The notes under the pieces are model-generated. The model did no database searches. It was not told where the DNA came from and was given only the letters and a program-made list of their open reading frames with translations. Positions 58,284-60,810 of a DNA stretch of 64,000 bases are shown here, one piece after another; the stretch's first letter is position 1; every line of letters starts with the position of its first letter. Source of the DNA: a bacterium (GTDB lineage Bacteria; Patescibacteriota; Saccharimonadia; Saccharimonadales; SZUA-47). Position numbers and translations under genes: made by a program. The stretch spans positions 162,793 to 226,792 of the forward strand of contig JAUIBF010000001.1 in assembly GCA_030428125.1 (NCBI GenBank). Reading direction: 5' to 3'.

Positions 58284-59141
58284 ATGCGTAATCCCAAAGA
58301 CATAGCGTTTGAAGAGAAAAATATCGGAACCCTTGTGGAGCTCACTAACGTATTCGAAGGTATTGCTAGTATGCGTATCTCACAGATTAAGAATCAGGTA
58401 CAGCAAGCCACTATTTACTTTAATGACTTGTGGCATATTTACTCTCAGTTGCGTGTTGATAATCTTTTTCGCTTTGGACGGAGTCAATCTGACGATGAAG
58501 TCTTAAATAAGGACCTCTTTATTGTTATTACGGCAGAAGGTGGTTTTAGTGGTGACATTGACCAAAAACTCATCAGATACATGCTTCAGGCATACGACAA
58601 AAACAAACACGATGTTTTAGTTATTGGACACCACGGTGCAATGCAACTAGCTCAACGCGGGGTTAGTTTTATCAAATACTTCAAGCTGCCGAAGAAAGAC
58701 GCGAATATCAATGTAACACCAATTATTAGGTATGTTAAAAAGTATCAGAAAACAACCGTTTACTATCAAGAATATGTCTCGTTAATGGTGCAAGATGTTA
58801 AGAAAATTGAACTTTCTGCCGCTGTGCAATCTAAAGGAAATGAATCATCAGAAGCAGACGAAATAATCACAGGCGAAAATACCATCTTCGAACCAAGTAT
58901 GTATGCAGTGGTAGACCACCTTGAGACAACGATGCTTCAGATTGCAATGAGTCAGTTAATTCTTGACTCGAAGCTTGCACAATATGCATCTAGGTTCCGG
59001 GCAATGTCGGCATCACACACAAGAGCTCAAGAGACCAAAGACGACCTTCACCTTGAATACAACCGAGCTAGACGAGCGATTAAAGACCAACGTCTGAAGG
59101 AGATTATTAACGGACTTAGAAAAGCAGGAGCAAGCGCATGA
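58284..59141 (+). CDS. atpG: F1 ATP synthase gamma subunit (ATG with AAGGAGG RBS; the ORF track starts at TTG 58278).
   Basis: N-terminal IGTLVELTNVFEGIASMRISQ and C-terminal NRARRAIKDQRLKEIINGL resemble the gamma terminal helices. Confidence 0.75.
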   Translation: MRNPKDIAFEEKNIGTLVELTNVFEGIASMRISQIKNQVQQATIYFNDLWHIYSQLRVDNLFRFGRSQSDDEVLNKDLFIVITAEGGFSGDIDQKLIRYMLQAYDKNKHDVLVIGHHGAMQLAQRGVSFIKYFKLPKKDANINVTPIIRYVKKYQKTTVYYQEYVSLMVQDVKKIELSAAVQSKGNESSEADEIITGENTIFEPSMYAVVDHLETTMLQIAMSQLILDSKLAQYASRFRAMSASHTRAQETKDDLHLEYNRARRAIKDQRLKEIINGLRKAGASA

Positions 59142-59147
59142 TGTACT

Positions 59148-59276
59148 CTGAAGCTAAAAAAGGGAAAAGAGCAACCAGAGCATCGGATTCATTCCGTGCC
59201 CTGCGCGTTGAGGAAAACCGGGGTCCCCGAAAAATCGAAGATTTTATGGGGTATAGGTACCGTAGGTTGTCCTCAA
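59148..59276. repeat. 128/129-bp repeat, copy 1 (atpG-atpD intergenic).
   Basis: About 98 percent identical to 61208-61335 (2 substitutions and 1 indel). It contains the ggggtcccc palindrome. Confidence 0.9.
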
Positions 59277-59295
59277 AAGTCGAAGGTGGTATCTC

Positions 59296-60810
59296 ATGAA
59301 CCAGGGACATGTCGTATCAATCAAGGATCTAGTTGTGCGCGTTCAATTTGATGAAGGTGGACCGAGAATTAATGAATTAATCTCTGTCGACAATGGTTTT
59401 GATACCAAGCTGTTGGTAGACCATTTGGAGCCAGGTGGAATCGCTTTTTGCTTAAATGTGCGTAGCGATAGGAGAATTGAAAAAGGGATGGCCGTTAAAA
59501 CTACCGGAAAAGGTATTGAGATTCCGACCGGTGTTCTGACTATAGGTAGGATCCTAGACGCACTAGGCGAGCCACTAGATGGCTATGATTCGGTAAAAGA
59601 TGAAGCTCCAAGAAAAGATATTATGAAGTTGCCACCACGCAGCACTAATTTCGAGATTCAAGCGCCTGAGATTTTAGAAACCGGTATCAAAGTTATCGAC
59701 TTCTTTACGCCATTCGTGAAAGGTCGAAAAATAGGAATTATCGGTGGTGCCGGTGTTGGAAAGACGGTCCTAACCATGGAGCTTATTAATAACGTTGCTC
59801 AGTCGGGAACAGGACTCTCGTTCTTTACGGGAATTGGTGAGCGTATTCGTGAAGGTCACGAGCTGTGGGACACATTGCGCGAGAACGACCTATTAAAGAA
59901 TACCTGTATGTTCTTTGGTCAGATGAATGAAAATCCCGTACAGCGTGCTCTAGTGGGTATTAGCTCAGTTGCTGGTGCAGAATACTTCCGCGACAAAGAG
60001 GGTAAAGACATCCTGTTCTTTGCAGATAACATGTATCGATTTATTCAGGCAAGCAACGAGCTATCGACGATTCTTGACCAGGTCCCTAACGAAGGTGGTT
60101 ATGAGCCTACAATTTTTTCTGATGTTAAGACCCTGCAAGATCGCTTGAGTTCAAACGAAAACGGCTCCATTACTAGCGTGCAAACGATATATGTACCGGC
60201 AGACGACCTTTCTGATCCAGCTGTGCAGATGATTCAGCACGAGCTCGATGGAATTCTAGTGCTTTCTCGTAAAGTTGCCGAGCAAGGAATACGTCCTGCC
60301 GTTGATTTGAACCTGACCTCATCCAGTCTTCTGACACCAGACATTGTGGGTGATCGACACTATAACCTAAGCGTTGACGTTATGGCCCTACTTCGTAAGT
60401 ATGAGTCGCTTAAGGGTATCATTGCGATTATCGGTGAGAACGAATTATCTCCCGTTGACAGAGCAGATTACGCGAAAGCTAAGAAGTTAATCAAGAACTT
60501 CACTCAAAACATGAATGTCATGGAAAAACACATTGGTATTCCTGGTGAAACGTACACTCGTGAACAAACTCTAGACAGTATTGAGTCAATATTGAAAGGC
60601 GAGGAGATTGCAGAAACCAAGGCCAACGAAGAAGCTGCTTCCAAGGCCCCGACTGCTGAAGCTCCAAAGGCTGCGCCTGGAGAAGACAAATCAGCCGCTA
60701 AGCCGGAAGAAAAGGAAGAGGCTTATAAAAAAGATAAGAAGTTCCACCTCCCTCATAAAAAAGACAAAGATAAAGTAGAAGAAAAACCGAAAAAAGCCGA
60801 GAAGAAGTAA
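59296..60810 (+). CDS. atpD: F1 ATP synthase beta subunit with a Lys/Glu-rich C-terminal extension.
   Basis: Walker [20 protein letters not shown] and a DELSEED-region analogue. RBS gaaggtgg. Confidence 0.9.

Follow-up and report, generated by a model that had tools for sequence, protein, structure and literature searches.

A folded RNA repeat of Saccharibacteria that occurs at gene junctions, before tRNA and 5S genes and inside rRNA, and is crossed in coupled operons by small open reading frames

The F-type ATP synthase operon in a 64,000-nucleotide stretch of DNA from a bacterium of the order Saccharimonadales (GTDB lineage SZUA-47; GenBank assembly GCA_030428125.1, contig JAUIBF010000001.1, positions 162,793 to 226,792 of the forward strand; henceforth the window) contains three copies of a repeat that our analysis identified as members of a family of folded RNA elements. 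The family comprises at least ~85 confirmed copies of 80-150 nt in genomes and metagenomes of Saccharibacteria/Patescibacteria. Its members share a core composed of a tail and two hairpins, termed P1 and P2, the base pairs of which covary, and they are found, nearly always in the sense orientation, between the genes of operons, before tRNA and 5S rRNA genes, and inside rRNA genes. Judging from the neighbouring genes, the host transcripts are those of rRNA, tRNA, ribosomal proteins (r-proteins), groESL and ATP synthase. Between translationally coupled genes the element is nearly always crossed by a small open reading frame (ORF) that carries no coding signature, runs from the stop codon of the upstream gene to the start codon of the downstream one, and is called here a relay ORF. 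[quoted passage not shown]

The original prediction, a note made from the letters of the window alone, reported near-identical sequences at 59148-59276 and 61208-61335 (copies 1 and 2), and this repeat is real. A repeat search of the window returned 59148-59233/61208-61293 (86 nt, 99% identity) and the overlapping pair 59215-59279/61274-61338, a gapped local alignment joined 59148-59291 with 61208-61349 (137 of 144 columns identical), and a 29-mer taken from the core has exactly two occurrences there, which none of 100 shuffles reproduced. Of the two substitutions and one indel originally counted, the deleted base (G59229) and one substitution (G59238 -> A) lie within the limits given; position 59277, where the other substitution falls, is just beyond them. 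Independently, a Logan unitig (L001, run ERR3428546) spans atpD-atpC and has both ends ~30 nt into a repeat copy, and this break inside each copy, the expected behaviour of a de Bruijn graph at true repeats, argues that the repeat is genuine. We therefore give practically no credence to chance similarity or an assembly artefact, which could appeal only to the source being a metagenome-type assembly and would have to explain, besides the shuffles and the unitig, why the copies differ internally and why they have dozens of homologues elsewhere.

The operon (atpG, atpD and atpC were confirmed by Pfam) has the order atpA, a 94-codon relay ORF with copy 3, atpG, a 53-codon relay ORF (sORF53) with copy 1, atpD-atpC, and copy 2 in the 3' untranslated region (UTR); all coordinates are given in Table 1. 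Copy 3 was not part of the original prediction; it is old and diverged, retains P1 and P2 through compensatory changes, and is directly followed by the atpG Shine-Dalgarno (SD) sequence (AAGGAGG, 58270-58276) and the ATG at 58284, which is a likelier start of atpG than the TTG at 58278 given by the ORF list. Copy 2 lies ~90 nt (101 nt for the covariance-model match) past the atpC stop, and its end adjoins the stop codon (61347) of a convergent 326-aa ORF. Upstream of the 5' boundary of the family it has, like copy 1, the 12 nt CTGAAGCTAAAA, a flank that is also present at the atpG-atpD site of the close relative L002 (CTGTAGCTAAAA) and in no other member of the family, so copy 2 was derived from copy 1 by duplication or gene conversion; the identity between the two drops sharply 3' of P2. 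That they bracket atpD-atpC is correct as to position, but we see no evident meaning in the bracketing, copy 2 being a recent paralogue of copy 1 in a 3' UTR. A covariance-model search of the 64-kb window found no fourth copy. When folded singly, the window copies give only modest z-scores (-2.3 to -3.0).

Homologs were collected in several ways. The relative L002 (Logan SRR33375179) has the same sequence in its atpG-atpD spacer, minus an internal 42 nt. A conserved 20-mer, scanned over one genome per species, identified copies at unrelated loci of two metagenome-assembled genomes labelled "uncultured Candidatus Saccharibacteria": one between rpsS and rplV (L004), the other between two unrelated genes (L003). 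From these sequences we built the covariance model R1, followed by a larger one, R2, and metagenome contigs were scanned with a degenerate pattern; counts given below are among the matches listed and hence lower bounds. By the models, 56 copies were confirmed among the first 81 loci (L005-L085) and 18 among the 40 that followed, and three loci reached through protein searches contributed 9 more. Copies are dispersed and numerous and have no transposase gene inside, as is typical of MITEs, and one r-protein region has five of them within 20 kb. Where the original prediction had allowed for further copies that diverge at random, copies elsewhere retain the structure. A pattern scan of viral contigs gave a single match (L005), which the covariance model did not confirm, and no match was obtained when a full-length copy was compared by BLAST with collections of phages and plasmids. 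Among 8 million papers, searched both by subject and for the sequence itself, none describing the element was found.

The core (~78 nt) consists of the purine-rich tail AAGGGAAAAGAG, the bulged hairpin P1 and the hairpin P2, which has a conserved A.G mismatch and a GUA/GNRA-type loop; its consensus reads AAGGGAAAAGAGCAGCC-n-GAGC-(variable hairpin)-GCCC-n'-GCGCG-AUGAGAAAAACC-GUA-GGUUUGUCUCAU, usually with a small variable 3' hairpin next to it. Covariation of the helices, suggested as a check in the original prediction, is strong: across 54 distinct sequences and the 26 pairs of the model (P1, P2 and the weaker 3' hairpin), 95.4% of pair cells are standard and 22 pairs show changes on both sides, values that are somewhat inflated since the alignment was fitted to its model, but which were attained in none of 500 column shuffles, and pairing fell to 29-53% when the 3' partners were slid by 1-3 columns. 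A first consensus obtained with RNAalifold from four unfitted sequences already contained seven compensated pairs. The excess of G-U over A-C cells (15 vs 6) mildly favours the sense strand as the RNA. Outside the helices, ~45 nucleotides are near-invariant. The pairings named in the original prediction, GGGGUCCCC and CCCC..GAAAAAUC/GAUUUUAU..GGGG, exist, but they belong to the 42-nt hairpin in the P2 loop of copy 1, outside the conserved core. A homolog of this hairpin is present upstream of rplB in another metagenome (L013/L084), which identifies it as an accessory module of the family. A further copy (L042, 6512-6618) carries an extra GC-rich hairpin in P1, so both hairpin tips accept insertions. 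In the alignment of copies, the length of the A-run in the 5' tail appears to track that of the A-run in the 5' strand of P2; this could reflect a tail-P2 interaction, an alternative pairing with the 3' strand of P2, or hitch-hiking within subfamilies. Repetitive extragenic palindromic sequences (REP/REPIN) are imperfect palindromes of 20-40 nt, frequently arranged as inverted doublets; the consensus here contains no inverted doublets and is made of an 11-nt tail and two different hairpins.

Copies outside stable-RNA contexts number 50 and are mostly in sense between co-directional genes; 24 of them are flanked on either side by genes of their own strand, and ~5 follow the last gene and face a convergent one, as does window copy 2. 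The genes that Pfam analysis identified downstream of such copies include those of r-proteins L4, L2, L23, L13, L14 and S4, ATP synthase gamma, KhpB/Jag and a NUDIX protein, to which Pfam tags of the sequence collections add S3, L16 and L15; S17, S13 and S9 lie downstream of junctions where the relay ORF or the neighbour was read from the sequence. The junction copies share a stereotyped layout: an SD-like sequence and an overlapping stop/start pair (TAATG or ATGA) lie 7-14 nt upstream of the element, and after P2 there is again an SD sequence, with TAATG or ATGA at the true start of the downstream gene. The window has two relay ORFs. As originally described, the ATG of sORF53 overlaps the atpG stop (gcATGAtg) and its TGA overlaps the atpD start (tcATGAac), and the deletion in copy 2 breaks the frame; this ORF is annotated in the NCBI source record. 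The 94-codon ORF starts with an ATG that overlaps the atpA stop (ATGA, 58007-58010) and ends two codons into atpG with a TAA (58289-58291) that lies 5 nt after the A of the gene's ATG. In locus L052 the atpA/atpG junction is occupied by a canonical copy with a relay ORF.

We defined a relay ORF by a start a few nt from the upstream stop, a frame open through the element and a stop at most 9 nt from the downstream start. Such an ORF (32-53 codons) was present in 17 of 28 automatically detected junction copies, and in ~24 after inspection; the overlaps are exact at both ends in nearly all of the 17. The binomial probability is 2e-4 under a null that considers phase only (1/3) and ~1e-9 if a realistic chance of the frame staying open is included. 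The original prediction treated the ORF as a by-product of a conserved nucleic acid; the second half of that view is confirmed below, but an open stop-to-start frame that recurs with statistical support in copies between coupled genes is more than a by-product. With a profile built on 15 relay peptides, 553 clusters of proteins 32-40 aa in length were recovered from NCBI, JGI, ENA and Logan data; none has a name beyond "hypothetical", and a "Patescibacteria group bacterium" is the source of one. In independent loci (three traced to contigs) all nine copies have a relay ORF, seven by the strict script and two by gene calls. There the gene calls abut to the base, as in L4/36 aa/L23/36 aa/L2, S5/36 aa/L15 and L22/36 aa/S3/40 aa/L16, and each small ORF at these r-protein junctions contains a model match of 59-83 bits; assembly GCA_018062785.1 has two further copies (L36/S13 and L13/S9) with uncalled relay ORFs. 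The P2 loop has 4 nt in 10 of 15 relay copies and 3 nt in 22 of 25 stable-RNA copies (Fisher p=0.001), and the 42 nt by which the window and L002 differ are a multiple of three, while the sole indel of copy 2, which is not at a junction, is of 1 nt. Other r-protein junctions (S8/L6, L5/S14) are filled exactly by ORFs of 53-72 aa with neither Pfam nor element-model match (Table 1); the insert that these cross, if they too are relay ORFs, may be of another kind or a strongly diverged one.

Several observations support the nucleic acid, rather than the peptide, as the conserved unit, as originally claimed. The spacers of the window and L002 are 92% identical, compared with 79.7% for atpD overall and 45.7% at its third codon positions, and the nine substitutions in the spacer fall 3/3/3 on the codon positions of the ORF, with no third-position excess. 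The same nucleotides are conserved before tRNAs and inside rRNAs, where there is no ORF. Within the relay copies the fold is kept (98% of cells paired, 9 of 22 pairs with double changes), and the relay peptides vary freely where P1 covaries. A 2-nt difference in the length of the P1 tip puts the 5' half of the ORF in the window and L002 (KGKRATRA) in another frame than that used by the remaining relay ORFs (REKSSQS). A search of 5.8 billion proteins with sORF53 found only itself, and it has no Pfam match. On this evidence it is very improbable that the ORF encodes a real small protein of which the repeat is a duplicated gene and copy 2 a pseudogene, even though the ORF is called in the NCBI record, is kept in L002 (as 39 codons, so that it is present in a relative) and has hundreds of similar 32-40-aa counterparts among called ORFs. 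The 553 clusters found with the other relay peptides would follow from conservation of the nucleotides. The preserved fold together with the open frame indicates that junction copies are under two constraints, one for the RNA fold and one for an open frame in the right phase.

A second group of copies is associated with stable RNAs. Sixteen end 0-13 nt before a same-strand tRNA gene; the tRNA +1 corresponds to position 81-94 of the element, which is placed 6-9 nt before it, and since good -10 boxes are found 25-45 nt upstream of these elements, the element would be part of the pre-tRNA leader. Two copies lie directly before 5S rRNA, in sense. None of the five tRNA genes of the window is preceded by the element, and the same tRNA species carry it elsewhere. 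In tRNA- and rRNA-context copies an additional helix, P0, is possible, in which UUCCC located 4-30 nt upstream pairs with the GGGAA of the tail (CUCCC with GGGAG in L083); pairing of 5 bp or more was found in 14 of 26 stable-RNA copies vs 2 of 48 others, but it is not significant copy by copy and was not recovered by RNAalifold. P0 may thus be an extra helix that is absent where the tail is translated.

Nine copies are located in rRNA genes or leaders, all in sense, at the sites listed in Table 1 (E. coli numbering, determined with rRNA queries in which the element was masked). We take 23S 540-553 to be helix 25, 23S 1157-1186 helix 45 and 16S 75-94 helix 6. Members inside rRNA (L041, L048, L083, L093, L122) sit at variable helix tips, and the rRNA copies possess an extra 5' arm of 35-50 nt that pairs with the whole P2 segment into a terminal stem of ~30 bp. 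The predicted folding energies are -71 kcal/mol for L041 385-560 (z=-6.2) and -81 kcal/mol for L083 (z=-5.3). RNAduplex, applied to the upstream 65 nt and the 3' arm, gave a mean z of -5.0 for rRNA-internal copies (z<-3 in six of eight), compared with -0.2 for junction copies, including window copy 1, and values near 0 for tRNA and other copies; the long terminal duplex is therefore limited to the rRNA-internal ones. One paper described 64 of 66 rRNA insertions in Saccharibacteria as short, non-intron and non-endonuclease, and separately noted many short insertions of the candidate phyla radiation (CPR) at known RNase III IVS sites, drawing no link beyond rRNA (PMC11270868).

The core is compact, with two hairpins, stem tips that vary and many unpaired nucleotides that do not, and its multiple copies lie immediately upstream of mature RNA 5' ends; these features would also suit a self-cleaving ribozyme of a new kind, serving as punctuation in polycistronic and precursor transcripts. 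We consider this quite improbable. Rfam 15, which presumably holds the known classes of self-cleaving ribozymes, gave no match at E<=10 in the atp region of the window, left the element unmatched at E<=1 in four canonical loci (L081, L041, L023 and L021), and left it unmatched at the gathering score in the window and in 20 loci. Moreover, cleavage between coupled cistrons would make the maintained relay ORFs pointless, and the long stem added in rRNA copies is typical of protein-mediated (RNase III) excision. Resemblances to hammerhead, twister and K-turn motifs were examined by eye and rejected.

Comparison of orthologous junctions reveals that the element is gained or lost between genomes. 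At L3/L4 the element is present in L025, L038 and L081 but missing from L128 and L130; at S19/L22 it is present in L004 and L067 but missing from L130; S5/L15 has it in L130 but not in L127 or L128. The empty junctions are abutting or overlapping stop/start pairs. At several filled ones the SD and start region is duplicated on the two sides of the element: L025 has a perfect duplication of 21 nt, L068 one of 19 nt, L038 one of 27 nt with 3 mismatches and L130 duplications of 12-14 nt, and in 6 of 23 cases the duplication exceeds the 95th percentile of cross-locus controls. These duplications favour insertion accompanied by target duplication.

Taken together, these data are best accommodated by the IVS/MITE-like RNA module outlined at the beginning, and the following course of events can be envisaged. 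The element would be transcribed in sense within the host transcripts, and selection would keep its fold at each locus. At rRNA helix tips it would be excised by RNase III through the ~30-bp stem, by analogy with IVSs and with the Correia elements of Neisseria, which are bound and cut by RNase III (PMC2649163; PMC10969869). Maturation of tRNA and 5S precursors would remove it together with the leader. At coupled stop/start junctions (TAATG, ATGA) the element would be flanked by the duplicated SD-plus-start segment and crossed by the relay ORF, and ribosomes moving from the upstream stop to the downstream start would terminate and reinitiate twice, so that coupling is preserved.

A number of points weigh against this proposal. 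Around four copies look antisense, most clearly the one in L003, which is antisense to both neighbours. Ordinary target-site duplications differ from those at the junctions, which are long and range from 8 to 34 nt; only about a quarter of the loci show them clearly, and at window copy 1 none can be seen. Nor was any mobilising gene, such as one for a transposase or a reverse transcriptase, found linked to the element. Most copies have no terminal inverted repeats: those of the window, the tRNA leaders and the junctions are asymmetric, and only the rRNA-internal ones have complementary arms. The sample was drawn with a sequence pattern, so that divergent members are under-represented in it. 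Transcription of the element, its cleavage by RNase III or otherwise, translation of the relay ORFs and mobility are all read from sequence. Finally, copy 3 and other old copies keep the fold by compensation, which points to a function at the locus and less to a purely selfish element.

This last observation leads to a possibility that deserves some credence, namely that the element acts in cis for the host as an RNA module with its own function, perhaps a domesticated one, and that a common protein or nuclease recognises its tail, P1 and P2. Such a module could set or protect the 5' end of the next unit (tRNA, 5S or cistron), or co-regulate the translation apparatus and ATP synthase. We retain it mainly because the fold is compensated in old copies and also in those crossed by relay ORFs; the near-invariant nucleotides outside the helices, the stereotyped placement before the tRNA +1 and directly before the SD sequence, and the nature of the host transcripts point in the same direction. 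On the other hand, presence varies among genomes at orthologous junctions and tRNAs, and the absence from all five tRNA genes of the window implies that any single site can do without the element; a partner protein was not identified, and insertion at rRNA helix tips with an added arm resembles tolerance more than function. A bolder version, which we find unlikely, is a lineage-specific RNA "punctuation" module: a dedicated nuclease or self-cleavage would set tRNA, 5S and cistron ends and fragment rRNA, the element might spread by copying of the excised and abundant rRNA fragment, and the relay ORFs would be an unrecognised means of keeping coupling across inserted RNA, with hundreds of uses in ultra-small genomes.

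The favoured reading, a mobile or formerly mobile module, places the element among several known kinds of sequence without equating it to any of them, since structured intergenic repeats, rRNA IVSs and translated palindromic elements are all known. Like rRNA IVSs, family members occupy classical IVS sites (23S helices 25 and 45, 16S helix 6) and other helix tips, where they fold into the terminal stem; unlike IVSs, most copies, including all three of the window, which are in atp mRNA spacers, lie outside rRNA genes and have no 5' arm. Nor did the papers that we found describe, for IVSs, a conserved core in common with tRNA leaders and ORF junctions. With Correia/NEMIS elements of Neisseria and ERIC sequences of enterobacteria the family shares short length, multiple copies, a non-coding nature, location in transcribed intergenic regions and RNA folding. 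Those elements, however, have terminal inverted repeats and short fixed target duplications and occur in either orientation, whereas the element described here is mostly an asymmetric tail-P1-P2 unit, nearly always in sense, with long variable junction duplications and no sequence similarity to them. The Rickettsia palindromic elements (RPEs) are also selfish structured repeats of a reduced genome that are compatible with translation (PMC10969869). RPEs, however, are inserted in frame within host ORFs and become part of the host protein, whereas our copies lie between ORFs and form a separate mini-ORF with its own start and stop, which would relay termination and reinitiation. Overlaps such as ATGA and TAATG, found at both ends of the relay ORF, are those of ordinary translational coupling, which differs in that here two coupling junctions stand in series around an inserted RNA module. 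To our knowledge, such a serial arrangement has not been described. Novel here is a single core that serves as rRNA IVS, as tRNA/5S leader and as inter-cistronic insert, together with the relay-ORF arrangement.

Saccharibacteria genomes are among the smallest and most compact in Bacteria, yet one folded RNA is present many times over in the transcripts that they express most highly. The family links three sets of observations that had been considered apart or passed over: the short non-intron insertions in rRNA, long structured tRNA leaders, and hundreds of 32-40-aa "hypothetical proteins" between r-protein genes. If the relay interpretation is true, these annotated mini-proteins let ribosomes cross the insertion without losing coupling and the peptides themselves are irrelevant, which would be a simple and testable route by which a compact operon tolerates an insertion. 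The family also supplies a covariance model for genome annotation, and the element is a candidate substrate for studies of RNA processing in cultivable oral Saccharibacteria.

Table 1. Coordinates of the features discussed (positions refer to the window unless a locus or rRNA is named)
Feature	Position	Strand	Basis or remark
atpA	56574-58010	+	Pfam/ORF calls
Relay ORF 1, 94 codons	58007-58291	+	fills 273-nt atpA-atpG spacer, crosses copy 3; no Pfam match
Copy 3, old and diverged	58202-58285	+	model R1 34.2 bits; model R2 43.1 bits, E=6e-9
atpG	likely start ATG 58284, end 59141	+	Pfam
Relay ORF 2 (sORF53), 53 codons	59138-59299	+	overlaps atpG stop and atpD start
Copy 1	59148-59291, as aligned to copy 2	+	covariance model R2, 79.7 bits
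Copy 1, 12-nt locus-specific 5' flank	59148-59159	+	alignment
Copy 1, tail AAGGGAAAAGA	59160-59170	+	consensus
Copy 1, P1	59171-59206	+	consensus fold
Copy 1, P2	59208-59276	+	consensus fold
Accessory hairpin in P2 loop, 42 nt	59220-59261	+	14 codons in relay frame; absent from L002
Copy 1, weak P3/SD region	59277-59291	+	consensus fold
SD-like GAAGGTGG (59282-59289) and atpD ATG (59296)	59282-59298	+	directly 3' of element; likewise in other junction copies
atpD	59296-60810	+	Pfam
atpC	60823-61119	+	Pfam
Copy 2	61208-61349, core 61220-61335	+	73.4 bits; 1-nt deletion, no relay ORF
Possible helix P0, examples	L048 7664-7680; L083 349-365; L023 80-106		tRNA/rRNA-context copies
Junction ORFs without an element-model match	L130 8247-8465; L128 15086-15247; L127 13237-13434		may be relay ORFs
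rRNA insertion sites	23S ~270, 540-553, 1157-1186, ~1704-1769, 2207-2213; 16S 75-94; one 23S leader	sense	E. coli numbering

We also considered whether the repeat carries transcription signals. Around the window copies there is no enrichment of promoter-like sites (7 vs 6.4 expected), and P2, the base pairs of which covary, resembles -35/-10 boxes poorly. Terminator-like sites are nominally enriched (10 vs 3.0 expected), but none is on the plus strand in or just after a copy, and the only matches within copies are formed on the minus strand by the accessory hairpin followed by UUUUCC. Both readings were rejected. On that strand, 59218-59230 and 61278-61290 have a terminator-like arrangement of the GGGGUCCCC hairpin followed by UUUUCCUC, and in copy 2 it might end the transcript of the convergent 326-aa ORF.

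Some further features of the region were noted. The C-terminus of AtpD (window ~60600-60807) is a Lys/Ala/Glu-rich tail of ~70 aa that is not found on ordinary beta subunits; AtpD of L002 has a shorter tail of this kind and AtpA of L052 a similar one. Right past the atpC stop there is a perfect 16-nt palindrome, TCGGATTTAAATCCGA, followed by the near-repeat CCGAGTTAACTCCGATTTAAG (window 61124-61160), and a similar sequence is present at the end of L002 (2118-2143), after an extra ~180 nt without a counterpart in the window. Elsewhere, the window encodes a tmRNA on the minus strand (18602-18985) with the tag peptide AKTSLSEMADRVLAQRQFALAA.

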